A DNA stretch of 64,000 nucleotides from Eledone cirrhosa (lineage: Eukaryota). Of this stretch, positions 20,979 through 64,000 are shown one piece after another. The translations under genes and the position numbers were made by a program. The stretch is taken from the NCBI GenBank assembly GCA_964016885.1, contig OZ024752.1, positions 33,108,001 through 33,172,000 of the forward strand, read 5' to 3'. The number at the start of each line of letters is the position of its first letter. The stretch's first letter is position 1. The notes beneath the pieces were generated by a model that was not told the origin of the DNA, did no database searches, and worked only from the letters and a program-made list of their open reading frames with translations.

Positions 20979-22491
20979 ATAAATGTTACTTCATTGATTA
21001 GTAAAAAATATATCAATGAGTATACAACTCCTTTTATTTTACATCAGGCAGGGCAAAAGTCACTTCAATACATACCCATATGTCAATAGAATGTGTTAAT
21101 GAAATAGGGAAAACATCAGGTATGCCAAAGTCACTTCCATATATACAGATACCTCAATAGAATGTGGTGATGAAATACTGAAAAGATCAGGCAGGGCAAA
21201 AGTCACTTCCATATATACATATTCTATACATAGGAAACCAATGGCCATCTAAAAAAAAAGAAAAGAAAATCCTGCCAAATCAATGGGTGGCAGTAGTTCC
21301 AGCTGCACGCATCGAAAGACTGGTGTAGTGGTTCTGAGAACAATGCGGCTTTGCAGATGATTAATGCAAAGGCGCTCCCGCTCGAGTTAGAAGAGAACTA
21401 TTGACCTTCAGGAGAAGCAGCGACCCCTGATTGTATTCAGCAACCCAAACAAATAGGAAGTACACCAAATCCAATGCTCCTAGGAGCAGCCCTGGTTCTT
21501 CTTATTTGCGAGTGTAAACTCGGCCAGATTAGATTAGATTAGATTAGATATGCCTCAATAGAATCATCATCATCACCATCATCATCATTTAACATCCATT
21601 TTTCCACACTAGCATGGGTTAGATGAGTTGTCCCATTGTGAGAGAAGTCAGATCAGGTGACCATGTCTTGCTCATACAGAACTGTTTCTGGCTTGGTTTT
21701 CATGGCTGGATGCCTTCCTTTACTACAAACCTGTGTGATAATGAAATTGGGATAAGAGAAAGGTATGGCAAAAGTCACTTCCATACCTACATATATCTCA
21801 ATAGAATATGGTGATGAAATACGGAAAATATGGACTTTATAGTTTATTATATAATATGTTTAATGAGACAGCAGGATTAATATTAAAATTGTAAATCAGT
21901 AATTTTAACTTGAACTTCAAACAACAACAGGAACTCACTCTTTACCAAGAAAAACGGTGAAAGATCATGTTCTGCTTTATCAATGAAATTTACATCGAAA
22001 AAGATTTATTTAACCTCAAGCTGATTCATATATATACTCAAATATAAGCTGAACAATATGTGACCAAAAACATCGATGGTAGAAGCAGGGTTGGTTTTAT
22101 ATTCGGGGTCAATATTTTGACGATTTTCACCAACTTCAAATTCTACGTAAATAAGGTTTTGCTTTTTGCCCATTTTTCAGATATAAAATAGTGGGGTTGG
22201 CTAATATTCATATCTGCTTATAGTCGAGTATATATTGTAGATAGAGAAAACATATAATGGTTCTGATCAGTATCTGCTTACTGGGAAAATTTATAAAATA
22301 TTTTAAAATATAGATTTAAGGAAACTTTCGACCCAGTAAAGCTGAAAACCCAGATATATTGAAGAATTTTCACAGAATTTGCACAGACTTCAAGAATTAT
22401 GATATTCTGGAGACATTAAAGAAGAGAGAATGATATTCAAAAACGGCAGTGAATGAAGCTGCAGTATTGGTATTGAGATTTAATAGAAGAT

Positions 22492-23395
22492 GATACCTCG
22501 GCCCCACATGGCCAAGTATGGCCAGAGATAGGAAGCAGTGGAGGTCAACCAGGGAGGGGTTCCTCTAGATGAATTGATAGATAATACCTTGACCCTATAT
22601 GACCCAGTATGGCTGGAGACAGGAAGCAGTGGAGGTCAACCAGGGAGGGGTTCCTCTAGATGAATTGATAGATAATACCTCGGCCCCACATGGCCAAGTA
22701 TGGCCAGAGATAGGAAGCAGTGGAGGTCAACCAAGGAGGGGTTCCTCTAGATGAATTGATAGATAATACCTTGACCCTATATGACCCAGTATGGCTGGAG
22801 ACAGGAAGCAGTGGAGGTCAACCAGGGAGGGGTTCCTCTAGATGAATTGATAGATAATACCTCGGCCCCACATGGCCAAGTATGGCCAGAGATAGGAAGC
22901 AGTGGAGGTCAACCAGGGAGGGGTGCCTCTAGATGAATTGATAGATAATACCTCGGCCCCACATGGCCAAGTATGGCCAGAGATAGGAAGCAGTGGAGGT
23001 CAACCAGGGAGGGGTTCCTCTAGGAGATGATTTGATAGATAATACCTTGACCATATATGACCCAGTATGGCCAGAGACAGGAAGCAGTGGAGGTCAACCA
23101 GGGAGAGCTTCCTCTAGATGAATTGATAGATAATACCTTGACCCTATATGACCCAGTATGGCTGGAGATAGGAAGCAGTGGAGGTCAACCAGGGAGGGGT
23201 TCCTCTAGATGAATTGATAGATAATACCTTGACCCTATATGACCCAGTATGGCTGGAGGTAGGAAGCAGTGGAGGTCAACCAGGGAGGGGTTCCTCTAGG
23301 AGATGATTTGATAGATAATACCTTGACCCTACATGACCCAGTATGGCCGGAGATAGGAAGCAGTGGAGGTCAACGAGGGAGACAGTTCCTCCAAC
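22492..23395. repeat. 91/94-bp minisatellite, 10 copies in two variants
   Basis: Recurring AGGAAGCAGTGGAGGTCAACCAGGGAGGGGTTCCTCTAG with period 91. Confidence 0.93.
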
Positions 23396-27679: not shown

Positions 27680-29961
27680 ATTCTAAATTTATTCTACAAA
27701 CCATCATTCTAAATTTATTCTATAAACCACCATTCTAAATTTATTCTACAAACCACCATTCTAAATTTATTCTATAAACCACAATTCTAAATTTATTCTA
27801 TAAACCACAATTCTAAATTTATTCAATAAACCACTATTCTAAATTTATTCTATAAACCACAATTCTAAATTTATTCTACAAACCACCATTCTAAATTTAT
27901 TCTATAAACCACCATTCTAAATTTATTCTACAAACCACAATTCTAAATTTATTCTACAAACCACTATTCTAAATTTATTCTACAAACCATCATTCTAAAT
28001 TTATTCTACAAACCACCATTCTAAATTTATTCTACAAACCACTATTCTAAATTTATTCTACAAACCACAATTCTAAATTTATTCTACAAACCACTATTCT
28101 AAATTTATTCTACAAACCACAATTCTAAATTTATTCTACAAACCACAATTCTAAATTTATTCTACAAACCACTATTCTAAATTTATTCTACAAACCACAA
28201 TTCTAAATTTATTCTACAAACCACAATTCTAAATTTATTCTACAAACGACAATTCTAAATTTATTCTACAAACCACTATTCTAAATTTATTCTACAAACC
28301 ACAATTCTAAATTTATTCTACAAACCACTATTCTAAATTTATTCTACAAACCACAATTCTAAATTTATTCTACAAACGACAATTCTAAATTTATTCTACA
28401 AACCACTATTCTAAATTTATTCTACAAACCACTATTCTAAATTTATTCTACAAACCATCATTCTAAATTTATTCTACAAACCACTATTCTAAATTTATTC
28501 TACAAACCACTATTCTAAATTTATTCTACAAACCATCATTCTAAATTTATTCTACAAACCACTATTCTAAATTTATTCTACAAACCACAATTCTAAATTT
28601 ATTCTACAAACCACTATTCTAAATTTATTCTACAAACCATCATTCTAAATTTATTCTACAAACCACCATTCTAAATTTATTCTACAAACCACTATTCTAA
28701 ATTTATTCTACAAACCACAATTCTAAATTTATTCTACAAACGACAATTCTAAATTTATTCTACAAACCACTATTCTAAATTTATTCTACAAACCACTATT
28801 CTAAATTTATTCTACAAACCACTATTCTAAATTTATTCTATAAACCACTCTTCTAAATTTATTCTACAACCCACAATTCTAAATGTATTCTATAAACCAC
28901 TATTCTAAATTTATTCTACAAACCACTATTCTAAATTTATTCTACAAACCACTATTCTAAATTTATTCTACAAACCACAATTCTAAATTTATTCTACAAA
29001 CCACTATTCTAAATTTATTCTACAAACCACTATTCTAAATTTATTCTACAAACCACTATTCTAAATTTATTCTACAAACCACTATTCTAAATTTATTCTA
29101 CAAACCACTATTCTAAATTTATTCTACAAACCACTATTCTAAATTTATTCTACAAACCACTATTCTAAATTTATTCTACAAACCACTATTCTAAATTTAT
29201 TCTACAAACCACCATTCTAAATTTATTCTATAAACCACTATTCTAAATTTATTCTATAAACCACTATTCTAAATTTATTCTATAAACCACTATTCTAAAT
29301 TTATTCTACAAACCACTATTCTAAATTTATTCTACAAACCACTATTCTAAATTTATTCTACAAACCACTATTCTAAATTTATTCTACAAACCACTATTCT
29401 AAATTTATTCTACAAACCACTATTCTAAATTTATTCTACAAACCACTATTCTAAATTTATTCTACAAACCACCATTCTAAATTTATTCTATAAACCACTA
29501 TTCTAAATGTATTCTACAACCCACAATTCTAAATGTATTCTATAAACCACTATTCTAAATTTATTCTACAAACCACAATTCTAAATTTATTCTACAAACC
29601 ACTATTCTAAATTTATTCTACAACCCACAATTCTAAATTTATTCTACAAACCACCATTCTAAATTTATTCTACAAACCACAATTCTAAATGTATTCTATA
29701 AACCACTATTCTAAATTTATTCTATAAACCACTATTCTAAATTTATTCTATAAACCACTATTCTAAATTTATTCTACAAACCACAATTCTAAATTTATTC
29801 TACAAACCACTATTCTAAATTTATTCTACAACCCACAATTCTAAATGTATTCTATAAACCACTATTCTAAATTTATTCTACAAACCACAATTCTAAATGT
29901 ATTCTATAAACCACTATTCTAAATTTATTCTACAAACCACCATTCTAAATTTATTCTACAA
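27680..29961. repeat. 26-bp minisatellite, about 88 copies, in the last FYCO1 intron
   Basis: Unit TTCTAAATTTATTCTACAAACCACTA with few variable positions. Confidence 0.98.
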
Positions 29962-33728: not shown

Positions 33729-34081
33729 AAGGACGTGTGTAGACTGGACAGAAATGAGGTAAGCATGCTTTGATGGGTTTGAGAGAAAAACAAAGCTTGG
33801 ATGAAGGACATGTGTAGACTGGACAGAAATGAGGTAAGCATGCTTTGATGGGTTTGAGAGAAAGACAAAGCTTGGATGAAGGACGTGTGTAGACTGGACA
33901 GAAATGAGGTAAGCATGCTTTGATGGGTTTGAGAGAAAGACAAAGCTTGGATGAAGGACGTGTGTAGACTGGACAGAAATGAGGTAAGCATGCTTTGATG
34001 GGTTTGAGAGAAAGACAAAGCTTGGATGAAGGACGTGTGTAGACTGGACAGAAATGAAGTAAGCATGCTTTGATGGGTTTG
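33729..34081. repeat. 75-bp tandem repeat (about 4.7 copies) derived from decayed RTE coding sequence
   Basis: Unit translates to DVCRLDRNEVSML*W, resembling RTE EDLRRLERNEACMLRW. Confidence 0.85.
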
Positions 34082-35330: not shown

Positions 35331-38300
35331 ACTGTTCTTCTAGCCCTCAATTTTCCTACCATTATGGATGGATGAGCTGAGAATAAATTTGAGCAACTCT
35401 GAATCAATAGATGAAATATGAATCTGCGAGCTACCAAGCACCCATGTGAAGCCCCAATCCAGAGACCCTTCCCTACGAGTGTTGACAAATGCCCAAAACT
35501 CCGAGTTGGTACCATCAATGTAGGCTCAATGAAAGGAAGAGCAGGAGAAATCGTAGAAATGCTAGAGCGAAAGGAAATTGATGTATGCTGTGTGCAAGAG
35601 ACTAGATGGAGAGGAGAGTCTGCCAGAGTCCTTGTAGGAAAAAGTCGGTGCTACAAATTTTTCTGGGTGGGAAATGACGATGGGATGGGTGGTGTAGGTA
35701 TTCTACTAGCTGACAAGTGGGTAGATAAAGTAATCTCAGTGTACAGGGTAAATGCAAGAATCATTAAACTCAGACTAGTCCTGAATAAAACAATTACCAC
35801 AATAATATCAGCTTACGCACCCCAATTGGGGCTGCCAGACGAACTTAAGGATAGGTTTTACGAGTCCCTAATGCACACTACTGCTCTAACAGACGACAAT
35901 GACTTCCTAATCATCGCAGGAGATTTTAACGGACACGTAGGTAAACACTGCGACGGCTTCAATAGAGTACATGGAGGCCATGGAGTTGGCACAAGAAATG
36001 AGGAAGGATTCAGACTTCTAGAATTCTGCGACGCCAATGACATGTCGATATGTAACACAAACTTTAAAAAACCCGACAACCACCTGATCACCTATAGATC
36101 AGGGGAGCACTCTAGTCAGATAGATTTTATCCTCATCAGAGGACGTGACAGATGGACGGTCGTAAACACAAAAGCCTTCCCTAGTGAGGAATGTACATCC
36201 CAACATAGCTTAGTTGTCAGCGACCTCACAGTCAGAACTAGACGAACCTGGAAACAGAGGCCAACCTGGAGAAGAAAGATCTGGAAGCTGAAAGACCCCT
36301 CAGCCAGTAACAGATTTAAAGATATTTTACTCAACGCCTACGACAGTAAAGAAGAACAGATAGAGACATTCAATATAGAAGAGAACTGGGAGTTCCTAAA
36401 AATTAACTTACTAGAGGCGACGGATGAAGTCTGTGTCTGGAGTAAGACCTCAAGCAGGAGGAGAGTGACTTGGTGGTGGAACAATAAGGTAGATGAGGCA
36501 GTTAAGGCCAAGAGACAGGCATGGAAAGAATGGAAGAACAGGGGGAGTAGGGTACATTACATTGAGACCAAGAGGGAAGCTAGGCGACAAGTATACTTAG
36601 CTAGAAGGGAAGCAGAGGATAGAAAATTCAAGCATGTTTTGCAACGTGAGGACCAGAAACAGGAGGTGTTCAAGATTGCGAGGCAGTGTGTCAGAGAGAG
36701 TTGTGATGTCATTGGAGAGAAGTGTATCAGAATGATAAAGGTGAGCTTGCCCTCACAAGTGCTGAGAAGAAAGATGCATGGAAGAGTCATTATGATAGAT
36801 TACTAAATGAGGAGAATGCATGGGAAGAAGAGACCCTACTCCAAGTAGACCCTATAGAGGGGCCAGCAGTACAAGTCAGCAGTAATGTAGTAAGTAAGGC
36901 AATCAAAGATATGAAGATGGGGAAGGCAACCGGTCCATCGGGTATAGCTGCCGAGATGTTGAGAGCATCTGGGTCTGTAGGTCACACTATAACCACACGT
37001 ATTGTTAACCAGGTAATACTAGGAGGTGTCATACCAAAAAATTGGTGCAGTAGCATCATTGTCAACTGCTACAAAGGTAAAGGTGATGCACTAGATAGAG
37101 GAAACTATAGAGGTATAAAGCTGATGGACCAGGTCATGAAAGTAACAGAAAGAGTTATAGCACAGTTAATTAGGGACCGGGTGAAAATAGACGAGATGCA
37201 ATTTGGGTTTTTACCAGGAAGAGGCACCACTGATGTCCTCTTCCTTGTGAGGCAGCTACAGGAAAAGTACCTAGCTAAAAGTAAGCCACTCTATTTGGCA
37301 TTTGTCGACCTTGAGAAAGCCTTTGACAGAGTTCCACGTGCTGTAATCTGGTGGGCTCTTAGAAAACTAGGAGTAGATGAATGGCTTGTGAAAGCGGTAC
37401 AAGCCATGTATAGGGGAGCAGTCAGCAAAGTTAGGATTAGCAATGAGTATAGCGAGGAATTTAGCGTACAGGTTGGGGTCCACCAGGGCTCTGTTCTTAG
37501 CCCCCTCCTGTTCATCATAGTCCTGCAGGCAATAACGGAGGAGTTTAAGACCGGATGCCCATGGGAACTCCTGTATGCTGATGACCTCGCACTTATAGCT
37601 GAATCTATGGTAGAACTAGAGAATAAATTCCAAACTTGGAAGCAGGGACTAGAAAGAAAGGGTCTCAAAGTCAACATGACAAAGACTAAGGTCCTTGTAA
37701 GTAGACGAGAAAACAGAACCCAGATCCCCTCAGGGAAATGGCCTTGCTCAGAATGTAGGAAAGGTGTAGGTAGGAACTCCATTCTCTGCCCCAAATGCAA
37801 ACAATGGGTACACAAGAGATGTAGTGGGATCTTAGGAAGCTTAATTAAGAATGTAGGCTTCACATGCAGCAGCTGTGCTGGGATAGCAAGCAGCAAACAG
37901 CCACAGGAAACAAGTACCACCAATCTCTGGGAGGGCTCTGTAGAAACAGTAGACAGCTTCTACTACCTAGGTGACCGAATTAGCAGCAGAGGTGGGTGTT
38001 CAGAAAGTACAATAACTAGGGTAAGAACGGGATGGAAGAAGTTTAGGGAACTACTACCACTGCTAGCTGCAAAAGGCTTCTCCCTCAGAATGAAAGGCAG
38101 ACTGTATGATGTGTGTATCCGAACAGCGATGTTGCATGGTAGTGAGACCTGGGCGCTGAAGGTGGAAGACTTACGTAGATTAGAGAGAAACGAAGCCTGC
38201 ATGCTCCGATGGATGTGTAACAGTAATATACGTGAACGACAAAGCATAAATGAATTGAGAGAGACTGAGCATAAGAGGAATCAAATACTGTGTGCAGGAG

Positions 38301-38840
38301 AGGCGGTTGCGCTGGTATGGACATGTGATGCGTATGAAGGATGACAGCTGCATAAAAAGGTGCAGAGCACTAGAAGTTGATGGAAACCGCGGAGTGGGGA
38401 GACCCAAGATGACCTGGGATGAGGTGATAAAAGCCGACCTTACCCAATTACACCTCTCAAAGGCGATGACACACGACCGTGACCTCTGGCGTCACGCAGT
38501 AATACAGAGTACCCGACCTCCCATGGGTACAAGCTGAAGCATATAGACAATATGCCCCCACACCCCCCACCGCAAGGTGGTCGTGGAGGTGCCACAACAA
38601 AAAAGCACCCAGCCCACACTGTAAAGTGGACATGTAGGCGCCACGAAAAAGCACCCAGCACTCACAGTAAATGAGGTTGGTGTTAGGAAGGGCATCCAGC
38701 TGTAGAAATCAAGCCAAGTCAGTTCTTGTATGAGCAAGGCATGGTCAGCCGACCAGACACTGCCCACAACAGGACAACCCGTCTAACCCATGCTAGCGTG
38801 GAAGAACGGACGTAAAATGATGATGATGATGATGATGATG
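35331..38840 (+). mobile_element. Near full-length RTE-clade LINE (APE endonuclease, RT, PHD-like finger) with two frameshifts and an (ATG)n tail
   Basis: APE motifs GTINV, QETRW, GDFNGH, QIDF, SQHS; RT motifs QGSVLSP and YADD; frameshifts near 36729 and 38260 relative to the intact copy at 62097; 5' boundary approximate. Confidence 0.95.
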
Positions 38841-39089: not shown

Positions 39090-39285
39090 CTGCGTCACAA
39101 ATCAAACAAGAATGAATTTCACATAATTATCTCACATAATATCAAATCTACGAGATTTTGATATCATTTATTTTCAGAAGAATACCTTAACATAAGTATG
39201 AACGGCCAGTTACAGCTGGTTTGAACAGAAAGAGGTGAGAGAGTTCCAGCCGAATATGGCCGGTTTAAATGCTAAAGGGTTAATG

Positions 39286-39563
39286 AGTTCCACCCCATTT
39301 GGTCCGATTTAATAAGTTCCACCCCACTTGGTCTGATTTAATAAGTTCCACCCCATTTGGTCTGATTTAATCAGTTCCACCCCACTTGATCTGATTTAAT
39401 AAGTTCCACTCCATTTGGTCTGATTTAATAAGTTCCACCCCACTTGGTCTGATTTAATCAGTTCCACCCCACTTGGTCTGATTTAATCAGTTCCACCCCA
39501 CTTGATCTGATTTAATAAGTTCCACCCCATTTGGTCTGATTTAATCAGTTACACCCCACTTGG
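39286..39563. repeat. 29-bp minisatellite, about 9.5 copies
   Basis: Unit AGTTCCACCCCACTTGGTCTGATTTAATA. Confidence 0.92.
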
Positions 39564-39826
39564 TAAGTGAATGATGTTTGGGATGTTGTCAATTTAGATC
39601 TTTAAAAAAAGAAAATTCTTTTAAAAAATATAGAATACCTTCACCATAGTTTTCCCAAGCATGGCTAATTAGGGGCTTAACAACATATTTATTAAAAAAT
39701 ATAAAAAACAAGAACTAAGTGATATCAAACATAGTCCCTCTACAAAATCAATAACAAAGTGATTGATATGATGTTACAGCTGATAATCTATATTGAAAGA
39801 TTTGTTGTTTATAATCCATAACTTAC

Positions 39827-39947: not shown

Positions 39948-40041
39948 CTGAATTCAAGAATATGATAGGTAATAATGAGGTGTTCCAATAATATACATTT
40001 AAACAAATTTTATGAAAATAAAATTAAAAAAACACGACATC

Positions 40042-40212
40042 TGTTATGAAGTTCATCTATCCTCAATATAACTTTGTTTTATTGCATATCTTTCTTTTCT
40101 TACAAATATTATTGTTATATTTCTTCAAGACTAATTACTGTTTTTATATTCTAGATATTGAATAAAAGCTTGGAATTGGAGCTTTAGTTTTGCAATATTA
40201 GAACGCACAACA
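40042..40212 (+). repeat. 5' LTR (171 bp)
   Basis: Appears identical to 43938-44108; TG..CA termini; contains AATAAA. Confidence 0.95.
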
Positions 40213-40324
40213 ATTTTATTCAATATGATATTTGTTACAACTGTTTCGTTCCGAGACTAAACGTTTTGTGGTATTCGTTTCCACCCTTACTCTACCTTCA
40301 AAGCTTGCTACATTCTCAATACCA

Positions 40325-41527
40325 ATGGCTCAATTAAAAATTCCACATCCAACATTCCCAAATGACCCCACATCCGAGCAATGGCGATGGTGGCGGAAGT
40401 GTTTTGTGGATTCCCTACTCATAAACGACATAGTAGAGGACAACCATAAATTGACCTACCTTCGTTCACAAGCTGGGGCCGACCTATTTAGTTTACTCGA
40501 ATCTGCAGAAAACTTCAACGAAGCACTAATCACCCTGGATACTCAATTCTTAGCCCCCAGTTGTATACTCTATGCCAGACATCAACTCCTAACATGCCGC
40601 CAAAAGCAAGAAGAAACCGTCCGAGAGTTTATTAAAAGACTCAACCTTTTATTGGAAAAATGTAACTGTAAAGCCATCACAGCTAAAGACCACAGAGATA
40701 TGTTGATCCTGGATTCACTAGTAGCAGGAGTCCAATCAGACGCTATACGAGCACGTCTCCTAGAGCTGGACGATACTCAAGCAAACCTAAAAGACTGCAT
40801 AGCAATGGCAAATGCAATAGAACTATCCAGTGATTTTACTAAATCATTCAACCTAGACATCTCTCTGAATTCATCAACACTGTCAACTACATCCTCTCAA
40901 GAACCTACCGTAGCAGCTACAAAATCAAAACAACCTCTTCTGAAATACTTGAAAAATGCTAATTCCCAAAGCGAATTTAAATGCTTTTTTTGTGGACTTT
41001 CTAGGCATCCTAGAAATAAATGCCCAGCTAGAAAAGACATATGCTATTCTTGTGGGAAGATCGGCCACTGGCAATCAGTCTGTAAATCTGACTGCCAAAG
41101 CAGTAAGCAAGCAGCCTCACTTATATGTTCATTAAATACCGGCAAACAGTCTAAAGCTATTCTCTGCCCGATAACTATAAAAGACACCACACTAAAGGCC
41201 TTAATCGATCCTAGTTCCACAGATTCATTTATACGTCATAGCATAGCAACTGACTTAAACTTGAGCGTAAAACAAGAAAAACGGGCAATCACACTAGCCG
41301 ACAATAAAATATTAAAGACGACTGGTACTACATCCATACCAATATGTATCTACAGCGAGGAATACTCTGTGAACCTAATCACTGCAAAAAGTCCTGTCGC
41401 AGACGTCATTATCAGAATGGATGTCCTCACCCAGCATAGCTCTATTATTCTCCACCTTGGCGGTGCCTTGGCCTCCCATGAAATTTTCAAATCAACTATG
41501 CTGTACCTTTCCGACAATAGAAGTTAA
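40325..41527 (+). pseudogene. Gypsy gag-protease region
   Basis: Twin zinc knuckles CFFCGLSRHPRNKC and CYSCGKIGHWQSVC; degenerate aspartic protease site ALIDPSS; frame changes before RT. Confidence 0.88.
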
Positions 41528-42723
41528 TCCGCCTCCTGTCTTCCACGATTTAGCCGAGACAAATATCAAGCCAATTGCCACTAAAGGACGTTTCATTAAC
41601 AAGAGAGACGACAATTTTATTAAGTCCGAAATAGCTCGCCTCCTAGAAGCCGGTATCATTGAGGAATCAATTTCACCTTGGCGAGCTCAGTGCTTCATAG
41701 TACACGGAAAGAAACCTCGACTCTTGGTAGACTACTCCCAGACAATTAATAAGTATACACAATTGGATGCCTATCCATCCCTCGACATTGAGGATGTTGT
41801 TAACAAAGTGGCACAGGATAAATATTTTTCAGAATTCGACCTCAAATCAGCATATCACCAAGTACCTTTAAGAAAAATCGACAAACCTCTAGCGGCATTT
41901 CAGGCTAATCACAAACTCTACCAATTCTGCCGCTTACCCTTCGGCGTGACTAACGCTGTACCTGTTTTTCAGAGAATTATGGATCAAGTTATAGAGAAAT
42001 ATAACTTACTCAAAACCTATGGCTATATTGACAACGTCATAGTCACGGGAAATACCAAAGCTGAACATGATAGAAATGTGGAAGCATTCTTAAACGCCGT
42101 GAAGACAGAAAACCTAACTCTTAACTCGGATAAGAGTAAAATCTGCCAAACGAGTATATCTATACTAGGTTATAACATTCAGAACGGAGTAAAGAAACCC
42201 GATAAGGAACGCATCGAAACCCTACTAGACTACCCAATCCCAACAAACAAACAACAACTGAAACGATTCCTTGGATTCCTAGCCTATAATGCTAGGTGGA
42301 TTGCCGATTACTCGAAGAAAATCCAACCACTATTACAAGCTGACTCGTTCCCGCTGAATAAAGTAGCTACAGATGTAATACAAGCCATGAAAGCAGATAT
42401 CTCTAATGCCGCTCTTAGCATTCCTCTTAAAACTGGCCACGCATTGGTAATAGAAACAGATGCGTCTGGCGATGCAATCGGAGCTATACTTTCTCAGAAC
42501 GAACGGCCCGTGGCCTTCCTGTCGAGAACACTTACACCGTCCGAGAAAAGACAATCAACTGTGGAGCGAGAAGCTATGGCTATTATTGAAGCTGTACGGA
42601 GATGGTCGCAATACGTGAAGTGTTTTCATACGATTATACGGACTGACCAAAAATCAGTAGCCTTCATTTTCTCGAGTAATAAATCACGAATCAAAAATGA
42701 TAAAATATCTCGCATCAATTTGA
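41421..42723 (+). pseudogene. Gypsy reverse transcriptase and RNase H
   Basis: SPW, DLKSAYHQV, LPFGVTNA, YIDN, ETDASG and EREAMAI motifs; frameshift near 42712-42735. Confidence 0.92.
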
Positions 42724-42724
42724 G

Positions 42725-43924
42725 CATCAATTTGACATTGACTTCAAACCCGGCTACCTCAACACCCAAGCCAATTGTCTTTCAAGAATCGCTGCAGCTA
42801 TATCGCCACCCTGTGATTTAAAAGTACTCCACGACCAACTAGCACACCCAGGAGTAACTAGATTTTACGATTATATCCGACGCCATAACCTGCCCTTTTC
42901 CATAGACGAAATCCGCGACGTCGTCAAAAACTGCGTATCATGTTTGGAGTGCAAGCCAAAATTCTTCAAGCCTCCATCTGCTAAACTCATTAAGTCAACA
43001 AGGCCGTTCGAACGTCTGTCAATCGATATCGTTGGACCAAAACCAAAATCTTCAAAAGCAGGAAACATATACTTATTGACTGCAGTAGACGAATTCAGCA
43101 GATTCCCTTTTGCTTTCGGTATGCGTGACATCACCTCAAACACTGTCATTAACTGTCTCAAACAAATCTTCTCAATATTCGGAGCTCCCTCATTCATACA
43201 CTCCGATCGAGGAACTCAGTTTCTCTCCAAAGAATTCGATCATTTCTGCTTGTCCAATGGTATATCCCACACGCGCACTTCGCCGTACCATCCACAAGGA
43301 AATGGCCAAAACGAGCGCTACAACGGAGTCCTCTGGAAAGGAATTCAATGCATAATTAACTCGCGCAAACTTAAAGAAACTAAGTGGGAAGATATCATAC
43401 CAGAAGTTCTTGCCTCGCAACGATCACTTCTCTGTACAGCGACTAATGAGACACCCCATAACCGCATATTTAGATTCGATCAAAAGGGTTCCTTAGGATT
43501 TTCCCTACCAGATTGGCTTAGAGTTGGAAACGACGCCTATATTAGAAACTTTATTCGTACAAAGAACGACCCATTAGTGAATAAAGTTATTATCGAACAG
43601 ATGGTGAATGCTAATTTCGCGGTTGTCAGATATCAAAATGGAAGATCTAGTACAGTCTCAGCAGCAGACCTCTCCCCTGGCCCAATTAATTGTCAAAATA
43701 ATGACAATCAATCCATCCAAGAAAACAGTTCGATTAGCAGTCCTGCTGATATGCCGAGACCACTTAACATCGACCACAGTAACGACCTACTCTTAGATGA
43801 AACCGTGATTGATTTAAATCCCATGGCAAATAGCACTAGCATCCTATCGCAAGTTCCTGTTGACCCCGTGAGACGAAGCAATCGTATATGTATAGCCCCC
43901 AAGCGCTATATTGAAGTACAATAA
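42725..43924 (+). pseudogene. Gypsy RNase H end and integrase
   Basis: HHCC region (LHDQLAHPG..CVSCLEC) and DDE core (SIDIVGP, HSDRGTQF, GQNER). Confidence 0.92.
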
Positions 43925-43937
43925 AATCGGCGAAGAA

Positions 43938-44108
43938 TGTTATGAAGTTCATCTATCCTCAATATAACTTTGTTTTATTGCATATCTTTCTTTTCTTACA
44001 AATATTATTGTTATATTTCTTCAAGACTAATTACTGTTTTTATATTCTAGATATTGAATAAAAGCTTGGAATTGGAGCTTTAGTTTTGCAATATTAGAAC
44101 GCACAACA
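43938..44108 (+). repeat. 3' LTR (171 bp)
   Basis: Appears identical to the 5' LTR; preceded by purine-rich AAAATCGGCGAAGAA (putative PPT). Confidence 0.95.
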
Positions 44109-45167
44109 ACATCATATACCAGGTTACAAACATGATCAGAAAATTCTATATATGATAATATATATATATATATATTATGGTTAAATGACATCATAAGGTG
44201 TAGGAGGCTCGCATTAACCAGATGTGTGAAATGAGGAAACATGATGTGTGCAGACGAGTTAGGAGAACAACCATCGTACTGAAGGATGTTCTTGAAGATG
44301 GCACCAGGCTAGAGGCAGGGGAATGCAAATGGCAATGCTGAACAGGGTGAGCTGGAGGAGAAACTTTATCAAGGCACCGGTGATAGATGTATAGAAGAAG
44401 AAGATGGCTAAGTTATGAGTCTTGTTACACCTGTGTAACTCCAGGGAAACAAGACTCACCACTTGGCCACAATAAAAAATATTTGGACTGACTGCTTTAC
44501 AATGAAACAGTATAAATATATAATAAATGACTAAGTTAACTATACTAGCATAAATATAACACACCTAGAAGATCAATACAAAGTTTGTAGATAAAATGTG
44601 GACACAGCCTGAGGCTGTGCATTTACATTACTCTATATTTACTGTTGTATTTTCATGGTAAAGGTTTTACCTCACATAATATCTAACATAATATCGAATC
44701 TATGAGATTTTGATATTATTTATTTTGAGAACAATACTTTCACATCACTATGGGTGGCCAGTTATGGCCGGTTTGAACAAAAAGAGGTGAGAGAATTCTG
44801 GCTGGATACGGCTGGTTTAAATGCTAAAGGGTTAATATCATAACACATTCTTAAATATGGAAAAATCTTCAATAAAGTCAACACTGTTAAACAGAGTAAA
44901 AACATACTGTTTCTTTTTTGCTTATTTGGCCTCCTGATGGCCTTTCCTATTTGATCTTTATATTTTATTAATTTTACCTTATTTTATTTTATCTTATTTT
45001 ATCTTATTTTATTTTTATTTTTTTTATTTTATTTATATATTCACTTGTCTGTGTATATCTTGCCTGTTTTTTTTTATTCTCAACTAGATGAAGTACTAGA
45101 TACTTCGCCTAGTTTGTCATGGCTTACTAGCTCTATGCGGACGTTTAAATTGATTTTTATTACATAC

Positions 45168-59323: not shown

Positions 59324-59805
59324 TCATCATCATCATCATCATTCGTCGACTACTGTCGAGATGATGGATCTCACTCTCATGCCCCAGAATTCCCTGTCCC
59401 CCATCGCCGCCCCCAGGTCCTGTCTACTGATTACAAGTATCTTGGCTCATATATCTCCTCCTCCAAAAAAGATTTTCTAACCAGGAAGGGTATGGCATGG
59501 TCAGCGTGCAATGACATGCACGCCATATGGACATCTCAACTTACCAACAAGCTAAAACTGGAAATATTCCAAGCAACCATTAAGCCCATATTACTTTATG
59601 GATCCGAAACTTGGACACTAACATCACAACTTGAGAGGACATCCCACCTTGTCTAAAATCTATGGCAAACTCCCTCGAGCCTCTGCCCTTCTAAAATCCC
59701 GGAGAGCTCAATTTGCTGGCCACTGTCACCGTGCCAGCTATGAAATCATATCCGCTCTCTTGCTCTGGAACCCTGACTCCAGCCTGACTAGGAGTAGGAA
59801 GCTGT
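59324..59805 (-). mobile_element. RTE-type LINE fragment (same family as 300-750) with a 5' inversion
   Basis: (ATG)n tail and 3' end on minus (59324-59425); upstream body on plus (YKYLGS..YGSETW..FAGHCHR); flanking repeat CACTGCATAACA. Confidence 0.85.
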
Positions 59806-60571
59806 CACTGCATAACACTGTTACAACATTAACATAAGAACACTTTCTATCCCACCAAACATACATACAAATATCACTGCATAACACTGTTACAACATTA
59901 ACATAAGAACACTTTCTATCCCACCAAACATACATACAAATACCACTGCATAACACTGTTACAACATTAACATAAGAACACTTTCTATCCCACCAAACAT
60001 ACATACAAATATCACTGCATAACACTGTTACAACATTAACATAAGAACACTTTCTATCCCACCAAACATACATACAAATATCACTGCATAACACTGTTAC
60101 AACATTAACATAAGAACACTTTCTATCCCACCAAACATACATACAAATACCACTGCATAACACTGTTACAACATTAACATAAGAACACTTTCTATCCCAC
60201 CAAACATACATACAAATATCACTGCATAACACTGTTACAACATTAACATAAGAACACTTTCTATCCCACCAAACATACATACAAATACCACTGCATAACA
60301 CTGTTACAACATTAACATAAGAACACTTTCTATCCCACCAAACATACATACAAATATCACTGCATAACACTGTTACAACATTAACATAAGAACACTTTCT
60401 ATCCCACCAAACATACATACAAATACCACTGCATAACACTGTTACAACATTAACATAAGAACACTTTCTATCCCACCAAACATACATACAAATACCACTG
60501 CATAACACTGTTACAACATTAACATAAGAACACTTTCTATCCCACCAAACATACATACAAATATCACTGCA
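59806..60571. repeat. 69-bp minisatellite, 11 near-identical copies
   Basis: Unit CACTGCATAACACTGTTACAACATTAACATAAGAACACTTTCTATCCCACCAAACATACATACAAATAY. Confidence 0.97.
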
Positions 60572-61798
60572 GAATACTACTACAATAATATTTATGAAAT
60601 ATTATCCATCCAGACAAATATAAAAATCACATAACCACATAATCAACAGCAGTATCAGTAACCTCACAACCCATAAACACTGTCCTGAGATGAAAACCTC
60701 CATTGATAAGTGTAGAAGACAAAGGAAGAAAAACTGTCACACTCTAACTGAATCTATCTAGCTTACCTATGTTGTCATCATCATCATCATTACCGCTTTA
60801 CGTTCATTCTTCCACGCTAGCATGGGTTAGACGGGTTGTCCTGTTGTGGGCAATGCCAGGTCAAGTGACCATGTCTTGCTCATACGGAACTGATTTGGGC
60901 TTGATTTCTACAGCTAGATGCCCTTCCTAACACCAACCTCATTTACAGTAAGTACTGGGTGATTTTTTACTGTGGCGCCTACATGACCACTTTACAGTGT
61001 GGACTGGGTGCTTTTTTACTGTGGCGCCTACATGACCACTTTACTGTGTGGACTGGGTGATTTTCTGTCATGACACCTACACAACCACTTTACAGTGGAA
61101 GTCTATATGCTTGGCTTTACAGTGGAAGTCTATATGCTTGGCTACTAGAATCTACCAATATACAGATGAACCTACTTAGAAACCTGTGGTGGATCAACTG
61201 TAAATTATACCCTACCATCTTTAAAAATGAAGAGCACACTGGGTAATGTTGTCCTTGATACACTATGTCTGATATAAAGATAGATAGGTCACAGCCAGAA
61301 TTGTTGGGATAATGGATTTGCTTGATCCTTGATCAATGATGATCTGCAGCTCAAAAAACAACAGTAACAGATATACAGAAACAGGCTGAACAGATCAATA
61401 AAATATACATCTGAACTACCATGCAACTTTCCATAGTGATAAGAAACTCTCAGGAGGGCTGGACAAGAGAAGAAACTCCTCTAAAGCAAGTGAGTCTCCT
61501 TTAAAAAAGGAGTCAAAACATTTGCTTGATGCAATAGATATAAAGAGACAAATTGAACAGATAAAAAAAATACATGTCTGAACTACCACACAATTTTCCA
61601 TATAATAAACTCCTGCATATGAGAATGTGTAATGTAATCCTCAAATAAAAACTGGCATGGAACTGTAACATAGTACTAGAACCATTGATCAAATCAAGTC
61701 ATTTTTATTACTATATATGGACCTGTTATTTTTATCTAAAGGCATTTTTTCCAATTTCACCCCGCCCGTCCCTTCTATCTATCTTATTTCTCATTGTT

Positions 61799-61834
61799 TC
61801 TTCTGATGAAGGACTAGTGTCCGAAACGTTAAGA
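61799..61834 (+). ncRNA. Minimal type I hammerhead motif, family 7
   Basis: TCTT-CTGATGA-AGGAC-TAGT-GTCC-GAAA-CG-TT-AAGA; palindromic AACGTT in place of stem III. Confidence 0.68.
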
Positions 61835-62096
61835 CCCTCTTCCTGTTATATCAAGCATTAACATAATATATTCCTTCCATATACTGTACCGATTGTGTTG
61901 TTATTTCAGTTTACCTTTTACATACATATGTATACATTATATATATATATATATATATTACTATCTGTCTATCAAATATATCTATCTATCTGTCTATCAA
62001 AATATATATGTGTGTATGTATATATGTGTGTGTATATATATATATATATATATGTATATAAACAGTGTGTATATATATATATATATATATGTATAT

Positions 62097-64000
62097 AAAC
62101 AGGAGGTATTCAAGATTGCGAGGCAGTGTGTCAGAGATAGTTGTGATGTCATTGGAGAGAAGTGTATCCGGAATGATAAAGGTGAGCTTGCCCTCACAAG
62201 TGCTGAGAAGAAAGATGCATGGAAGAGTCATTATGATAGATTACTAAATGAGGAGAATGCATGGGAAGAAGAGACCCTACCCCACGTAGACCCTATAGAG
62301 GGACCAGCAGTACAAGTCAGCGGCAGCGTAGTAAGTAAGGCAATCAGAGATATGAAGATAGGGAAGGCAACCGGTCCATCGGGTATAGCTGCCGAGATGC
62401 TGAAGGCATCTGGGTCTGTAGGTCACACTATAACCACACGTATCGTTAACCAGGTAATACTAGAGGGGGCCATACCAAAAGATTGGTGCAGTAGCATCAT
62501 TGTCAACTGCTACAAAGGTAAAGGCGATGCACTAGATAGAGGAAACTATAGAGGTATAAAGTTGATGGACCAGGTCATGAAAGTAACAGAAAGAGTTATA
62601 GCACAGCTGATTAGGGACCGGGTGAATATAGACGAGATGCAATTTGGGTTTGTACCAGGGAAAGGCACCACTGATGCGCTCTTCCTTGTGAGGCAATTAC
62701 AGGAAAAGTACCTAGCTAAAAGTAAGCCACTCTACTTGGCATTTGTCGACCTTGAGAAAGCCTTTGACAGAGTTCCACGTGCAGTAATCTGGTGGGCTCT
62801 TAGAAAACTAGGAGTAGATGAATGGCTTGTGAAAGCGGTACAAGCCATGTATAGGGGAGCAGTCAGCAAAGTTAGGATTGGCAATGAGTATAGCGAGGAA
62901 TTTAGCGTACAGGTTGGGGTCCACCAGGGCTCTGTTCTTAGCCCTCTCCTGTTCATCATAGTCCTGCAGGCAATAACGGAGGAGTTTAAGACCGGATGCC
63001 CATGGGAACTCCTGTATGCTGATGACCTCGCACTCATAGCTGAATCTATGGTAGAACTAGAGAATAAATTCCAAACCTGGAAGCAGGGACTAGAGAGAAA
63101 GGGCCTCAAAGTCAACATGACAAAGACTAAGGTCCTTATAAGTAGACGAGAAAACAGAACCCAGATCCCCTCAGGGAAATGGCCTTGCTCAGTATGTAGG
63201 AAAGGTGTAGGTAGGAACTCCATTCTTTGCCCCAAATGCAAACAATGGGTACACAAGAGATGTAGCGGGATCTCAGGAAGCTTAATTAAGAATGTAGGAT
63301 TCACATGCAGCAGCTGTGCTGAAACAGCAAGCAAACAGCCACAGGAAACAAGTACCACCAATCTCTGGGAGGGCCCTGTAGAAACAGTAGACAGCTTCTG
63401 CTACCTAGGTGACCGAATTAGCAACGGAGGTGGGTGCTCAGAAAGTACAATAACTAGGGTAAGAACGGGATGGAAGAAGTTTAGGGAACTACTACCACTG
63501 CTAGCTGCAAAAGGCTTCTCCCTCAGAATGAAAGGCAGACTGTATGATGCGTGTATCCGAACAGCGATGTTGCATGGTAGTGAGACCTGGGCGCTGAAGG
63601 TGGAAGACTTACGTAGATTAGAGAGAAACGAAGCCTGCATGCTCCGATGGATGTGTAACAGTAATATACGTGAACGACAAAGCATAAATGAATTGAGAGA
63701 GAGACTGAGCATAAGAGGAATCAAATGCTGCGTGCAGGAGAGGCGGTTACGCTGGTATGGACATGTGATGCGTATGAAGGATGACAGCTGCATAAAAAGG
63801 TGCAGAGCACTAGAAGTTGATGGAAACCGCGGAGTGGGGAGACCCAAGATGACTTGGGATGAGGTGATAAAAGCCGACCTTACCCAACTACACCTCTCAA
63901 AGTCAATGACACACGACCGTGACTTCTGGCGTCACGCAGTAATACAGGGTACCCGACCTCCCATGGGTACATGCTGAAGCATATAAACAATATGCCCCCC
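62097..64000 (+). mobile_element. 5'-truncated young RTE LINE of the same family, RT frame open to 63977, runs off the window
   Basis: Highly similar to 36657 onward; homology begins directly after a (TA)n tract. Confidence 0.95.

Follow-up and report, generated by a model that had tools for sequence, protein, structure and literature searches.

A Ty3/Gypsy element of Eledone cirrhosa with a primer-binding site complementary to its own LTR: probable self-priming, and sister copies carrying spliced host exons

The Ty3/Gypsy retrotransposon at positions 40042-44108 of the window (the whole 64,000-nucleotide stretch of Eledone cirrhosa DNA analyzed here) very probably primes reverse transcription from its own RNA and not from a tRNA. 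With nearly as much assurance we propose that the primer is an LTR RNA segment and that a sizeable share of the priming events uses host transcripts which were likely spliced onto an acceptor in the LTR. Sister copies of the element that carry host exons look like fossils of such an RNA primer, consisting of host exons and the LTR segment, that was copied by plus-strand synthesis.

The element and its LTR complement

The element is 4,067 bp long and young, and its Pfam domains stand in the order gag, protease-RT-RNase H-integrase, which is that of Ty3/Gypsy. In the window copy the polyprotein gene is disrupted and reads in three overlapping frames; several sister copies have open frames of more than 1,200 aa, and thus the family has one long ORF. 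No Pfam chromodomain match was obtained on the integrase frame, and no chromodomain was found among the best 120 homologs. The family, referred to as family A below, is small and young, with at least 41 matches at 94-100% (40 of the 76 candidates were scored) and 65 LTR sites in the 3-Gb host genome.

Table 1. Features of the element, in positions of the window
Feature	Position	Strand	Basis or remark
5' target-site duplication ACATC	40037..40041	+	same 5 bp at 44109-44113
5' LTR, 171 bp, TGTT..AACA	40042..40212	+	identical to 3' LTR; TG..CA ends
3' splice acceptor in LTR	40131..40154	+	CTAAT (branch-point-like) at 40131-40135, pyrimidine tract, AG at 40153-40154
Predicted self-primer segment ATATTGAATAAAA	40155..40167	+	exact PBS complement; covariation; AATAAA (40161-40166) inside
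Remaining R and U5, enclosed as a loop by the primer-PBS duplex	40168..40212	+	fold; short hairpin adjoins primer end
Predicted primer-binding site (PBS) TTTTATTCAATAT	40214..40226	+	one base (A40213) after LTR; without TGG
gag (two Cys/His knuckles) and aspartic protease frame	40325..41527	+	Pfam Retrotrans_gag and PNMA (weak), RVP_2
Reverse transcriptase and RNase H frame	41379..42821	+	Pfam RVT_1 5e-29, RT_RNaseH 3e-24
Integrase frame	42704..43924	+	Pfam Integrase_H2C2, rve 8e-21
Short purine-rich tract before 3' LTR, likely plus-strand primer	43929..43937	+	sequence; function inferred
3' LTR	43938..44108	+	repeats acceptor, primer segment (44051-44063), and poly(A) signal
3' target-site duplication ACATC	44109..44113	+	

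The window also contains two non-LTR retrotransposon copies (35415-38344 and 61833-63977, both on the + strand) with endonuclease and RT, which we take to be RTE-like; both have a PHD-finger-like Cys-rich insert after the RT domain. A 26-bp satellite of 88 copies at 27680-29961 is nearly free of G on the + strand (GC skew -0.95). Further tandem arrays are present at 39280-39564 (29-bp unit), 33729-34081 (75 bp), 59805-60585 (69 bp), and 22488-23381 (91 bp), the 75-bp unit containing a strong splice-donor-like AG/GTAAGC.

An earlier, sequence-only reading of this DNA had stated that no TGG-type PBS follows the 5' LTR and that an exact 13-nt complement of an LTR segment overlapping AATAAA is found in its place. 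Both statements were borne out: after a one-base spacer, TTTTATTCAATAT is the exact reverse complement of ATATTGAATAAAA over 13 nt, and the pairing stops at both ends of this stretch. A match of this length did not arise in any of 1,000 dinucleotide-shuffled LTRs (mean 5.2, maximum 10). The primer-PBS duplex was present in the minimum-energy fold of an RNA beginning at 40155 (z -2.2 to -3.2) and became weaker with a longer 5' leader, with a z-score of -0.3 for an RNA from 40140 and a pair probability of about 0.5 for one that begins with the LTR. A stem beside the primer end was enriched over 25 related families (sum 106, compared with a shuffled mean of 74 and maximum of 91) and was not above chance in the window copy itself (p 0.78). 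Position 40155 is the first base 3' of the splice acceptor used in the traced read-through copies described below, and a transcription start of the element near this base (40153-40157), as the sequence-only reading had proposed, is possible.

Pairing across the clade and placement of the element

Covariation in related families, which the sequence-only reading had named as a check, was found: the layout is kept while the letters differ between families. With LTR ends defined from the LTR pair, a perfect LTR complement of 12-17 nt started 1-2 nt after the LTR in 10 of 11 clade elements, and the remaining one had a single mismatch, whereas none of 10 tRNA-PBS control elements of the same genome had such a complement (4-6 nt only). 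A second family of the genome (family B; approximately 33% gag and 55% RT identity, 194-bp LTR) showed a 12-nt LTR-PBS match with an altered outer pair. As for the other clade loci of the genome, four of the five were without a clear LTR end (L225, L226, L227, and L230), and L228 gave a 12-nt complement.

The same pairing was present in metagenome contigs. Out of 80 loci, 39 were without a gag start and four without upstream DNA, leaving 37 testable loci, and 28 of these gave a complement of 10-18 nt, one of them at a shifted anchor. Inspection of the nine misses by eye showed the same pair with one or two changes or a mutated CA in six, a displaced pair in two, and no upstream arm in one. Twenty-five family representatives, which were chosen from loci passing the scan and are related, so that they do not count as independent, displayed 21 distinct 11-nt cores with TGG in none, and 10 of 600 cross-family pairs reached 10 nt. 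The paired segment is typically AAA-ended and followed by RCCT. Within a family, a compensatory double change was observed between 99%-identical copies, LTR G>T occurring together with PBS C>A.

It could be argued that a host tRNA half or another small RNA of the same sequence serves as the primer and that the LTR match is incidental, as half-tRNA priming is known in some copia lineages, according to PMC6317226, and the host tRNA sample was thin (16 matches, five amino-acid types). This is extremely improbable in view of the 21 different cores, each of which matches its own LTR, and of the compensatory change within a family; among the nine tRNA genes checked, the longest match to the primer was 6 nt. 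The loci L232 and L234 (G000:C1, approximately 243.65-243.68 Mb) are clusters of tRNA-Thr-like genes, with seven and five genes within 3 kb, respectively.

Another explanation limits the duplex to masking the 5' poly(A) signal against early termination, with a tRNA or tRNA fragment priming elsewhere. AATAAA or ATTAAA lies inside the paired segment in 14 of the 25 families, and the partner of the segment occurs only after the 5' LTR, as expected from such a function. The other 11 families pair without any such hexamer, and therefore hiding of the poly(A) signal cannot be the whole function. Moreover, the site sits at the place required of a PBS, 1-2 nt after the terminal CA, no TGG follows the LTR, and it is precisely at the PBS that sense exon-LTR sequence meets antisense U5 in the read-through copies, making the explanation very unlikely.

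In quick trees, the RT-RNase H of the element fell into a clade of its own (SH-aLRT 100), apart from a Mag-type tRNA-primed family (29% RT-RNase H identity), from CsRn1-type families of the same genome, and from elements of a viral collection. The CsRn1-type label is based on an RT motif; several LTRs of these families (L212-L229) end in TAAA or TTTA, not CA, before a TGG tRNA site. The clade lies on a long branch and was placed on the same side of a branch as one Mag-type family with weak support (85). A sister position to four viral-collection elements, which stand in for chromoviruses in place of a named reference, was not rejected (p-AU 0.09), and thus an independent origin of self-priming does not follow. 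Homology searches gave at least 838 proteins at E<=0.001 among the longer candidates, the named ones coming from Trichuris, a woodlouse, moths, a leafhopper, a damselfly, Ciona, and a stingray. Another family of the clade is represented by five near-identical RT fragments at G000:C1, 143.37-143.76 Mb; they are spaced 48-167 kb apart, probably as a segmental tandem array.

The clade appears to be neither Tf1/sushi nor Mag A/B/C proper. The term 'Mag-like', which the sequence-only reading had used, applies only loosely, given the separate RT-RNase H clade; one table in supplement 1 of PMC6238403 files Cigr-1 under 'Mag', without an A/B/C label. We lean towards identifying the clade as Cigr-1, a group of Ciona intestinalis, molluscs, and annelids, by the indirect evidence of the Ciona intestinalis protein, which nests in the clade in the RT-RNase H tree, and of published family counts rather than of a reference sequence; MolGy2 or another clade is possible. 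In supplement 3 of PMC6238403, Cigr-1 comprises seven low-copy families of the published octopus genome beside abundant CsRN1 and Mag AB, and we infer that the Gypsy mix of our host is similar. The accessible parts of PMC6238403 and PMC8556966 make no statement on the primer of Cigr-1. Like Mag A/B/C, the window element has short LTRs, a 5-bp target duplication, and two Cys/His knuckles in gag. Two such knuckles are a Mag trait, and so is, in Mag A/B/C, a tRNA PBS starting with TGG, which is present in the Mag-type family of this genome and absent from the window element. The open frames of approximately 1,200 aa presumably fit the size of Cigr-1.

Copies carrying host exons

A genome-wide pattern search, in which three mismatches were allowed, found 31 LTR-PBS junctions of family A. 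The element continues normally with GA at 22 of them; eight of the remaining nine continue with CT and one with CC, and there was no other continuation. These nine junctions represent eight loci, two being a tandem duplicate. Past the PBS, each locus has a different foreign sequence, in most cases followed by a return to the element, and in four of the loci perfect 5-bp target duplications flank the whole copy.

The origin of the foreign sequences was searched for in six of the eight family-A loci, those of L086 and L088 being too short. With family B included, six of the seven traced donors were antisense host exons ending at a GT splice donor. In four sister copies, the base after the LTR acceptor AG is joined to such exons, whose ends, read antisense, are AAG/gtaggt in L081, AAG/gtaagt in L083, AAG/gtaggt in L084, and TAG/gtaagt in L102. 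The insert of L084 consists of two exons that lie 124 kb apart in the genome, each with ag and gt ends, and that are joined without the intron; L104 of family B likewise contains two spliced exons joined together. The donor of L107 (family B) ends in ATG/gtaaat and is a repeat matched at 93% only. L085 has as its donor a repeat without GT, and genome searches found no donor for L082.

In the genome, the insert of L083 matches its donor best (98%, E 2e-33; next match 6e-16); the donor exon lies 4,650 nt upstream of a solo LTR on the same strand (G000:C2, approximately 26.274-26.279 Mb). Contig sets yielded neither a start site nor a splice joint at this donor, which we count neither for nor against the proposal. 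For L081, L084, and L102, no family LTR was found within 30-50 kb downstream of the donor (12 stretches of 10 kb), and none was found on C5 at all. With no nearby LTR at three of the four family-A GT donors, a partner for splicing in cis is thus visible in one case only. In L083 and L107, families A and B have captured an exon of one and the same dispersed repeat. The repeat has its end at a GT donor and may be a frequent source of first exons. In the metagenome contig L154 (174-260), an LTR end and PBS are followed by a 39-nt hairpin insert and then by a second LTR end and PBS; the insert, read antisense, ends in AAG at the AG position, and the whole is possibly a read-through copy in another host.

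The CT after the PBS was considered as a start site at 40153 or as a trace of the cap, and this was rejected since the donors end at AG/GT. A scan of the element for strong donor motifs found none, so an intron inside the LTR was also rejected. Two further family-B junctions were not counted, L291 being an internal deletion and L292 untraced.

On the minus strand, the order in the read-through copies is host exons, LTR segment, and antisense U5. The antisense strand has no AG at the joint between exon and LTR, and hence this joint cannot come from antisense splicing; splicing of a sense RNA into the LTR acceptor is needed. The second joint, between the LTR segment and antisense U5, needs extension on the PBS. 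The simplest origin of the copies is an unremoved RNA primer that was copied by plus-strand synthesis. The fossil copies put the 3' end of this primer at or before 40167.

We considered whether the copies could be DNA-repair or assembly artefacts, arising by snap-back of an inverted repeat and subsequent capture of cDNA. In favor of this, the copies show rearrangements, and single-stranded DNA could fold at the inverted repeat. The break falls at the same base at all eight loci, however, the donors end at GT, introns have been removed, target duplications bracket whole copies, and a variant of the L082 junction is present in a separate contig set, so that an artefactual origin appears highly unlikely.

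A more serious competitor, to which we assign a substantial though less than even chance, shares the self-priming core and differs on the role of splicing: the element would use plain Tf1-type self-priming from its own start at approximately 40153-40157, and the exon-bearing copies would be by-products of a chimeric exon-LTR RNA acting as the template for the plus-strand end or as an occasional primer. In 22 of the 25 families there is an A 11 nt ahead of the 3' end of the primer, mostly within T-A-G-T, which resembles the initiator motif; the primer of Tf1 is reportedly 11 nt long. The conserved T-A-G-T fits an initiator as well as an acceptor; in most other families the paired segment itself contains the nearby AG, frequently as a poor acceptor. 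Priming from an own capped start would be traceless, which agrees with the 22 normal junctions out of 31, and L085 keeps 2-4 bases of unspliced LTR complement past the PBS. On the other hand, read-through at eight loci of one small family is a large share for an accident, and an unspliced 3'-LTR RNA as template predicts a long complement of U3, whereas the run of U3 complement does not exceed 4 nt in any read-through copy. The chief alternative of this kind has a plus-strand end, terminating in the PBS, anneal to a co-packaged exon-LTR RNA as its template; the same copies would result, and a primer of LTR sequence would still be needed.

The proposal of the sequence-only reading that the element self-primes instead of using a tRNA is supported both by the covariation across families and by the primer read-through copies. 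In the mechanism that we favor, self-priming with frequent use of spliced host transcripts, an RNA containing 40155-40167 would anneal to the PBS, a pairing that is present in the sequence and kept by covariation; the duplex would also hide the 5' copy of AATAAA. A cut just 3' of the paired segment, probably made by the RNase H of the element by analogy with Tf1, would release the primer and provide a 3'-OH, from which minus-strand DNA would be extended. The primer would sometimes be retained and copied by plus-strand synthesis, with the PBS thereby rewritten from the primer in each cycle, and such rewriting would explain the perfect, co-varying match. When host exons are present at the 5' end of the primer, they would be copied as well and strand transfer would go astray, after which integrase would insert the observed structure of LTR, PBS, antisense spliced exons, and rest of the element. 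A stronger version, in which the LTRs act as exon traps, the RNA of the element depends on host splicing into the LTR acceptor, and the spliced exon-LTR RNA, even from a solo LTR elsewhere, is the normal primer, is rather doubtful.

Comparison with known systems and implications

In Tf1 and Tf2 of S. pombe, Tj1 of S. japonicus, and the Tf1/sushi chromoviruses, the PBS complements a segment of the LTR and not a tRNA, as described in PMC4600332 and bioRxiv 2022.12.06.519325. In Tf1, the primer is formed by the 5' end of the transcript. The window element is similar in that the PBS just after the 5' LTR complements its own LTR and no tRNA site is present, and it differs by having no chromodomain and an RT-RNase H of a separate clade. 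Of the three-duplex 'pretzel' described in bioRxiv 2022.12.06.519325, the central duplex is present here; instead of the full structure, a single stem beside the primer is enriched over the 25 families. A DNA copy of the PBS is reportedly kept at the 3' end in about half of the Tf1 cDNA molecules (PMC11042837), which matches the read-through in family A, where the copies in addition show the primer extended at its 5' end by host exons.

Self-priming has also been predicted, from LTR-PBS complementarity of at least 10 nt, for the TAR lineage of plant copia elements and for Tcn1 chromoviruses; these belong to another superfamily or lineage with plant and fungal hosts, and the accessible text of the source (PMC6317226) describes no splice-derived primers. 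The locus L209 of the viral collection is a fungal-type chromovirus among viral contigs, with a chromodomain and a 9-nt LTR complement starting 3 nt after the LTR, both identified by eye. Further background is given in PMC6934838, PMC3601003, PMC2774666, and PMC3670739. A literature search, with most subscription papers and Repbase outside its scope so that an earlier mention is possible, found nothing on self-priming in this clade or on primers made of spliced host exons.

We conclude that the complementarity is real, conserved, and informative about mechanism, and that it very probably represents a variant of Tf1-type self-priming in a non-chromoviral animal clade, with genomic fossils that tie the primer to host splicing. 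The sources available to us describe self-priming in Tf1/sushi chromoviruses and predict it in two plant lineages; the present case very probably extends it to a large clade outside the chromoviruses, with related elements in nematodes, arthropods, a tunicate, and a ray. The exon-bearing copies, in which the sequence of a spliced sense RNA is joined to minus-strand U5 at the PBS, come nearest to direct genomic evidence for such priming. They point to host splicing as a possible source of the primer, perhaps at another locus, and reveal one way in which spliced host exons are carried by LTR elements. If the exon-trap reading is true, the element would be a promoter-independent retrotransposon that can be primed in trans and that moves spliced host exons to new loci.
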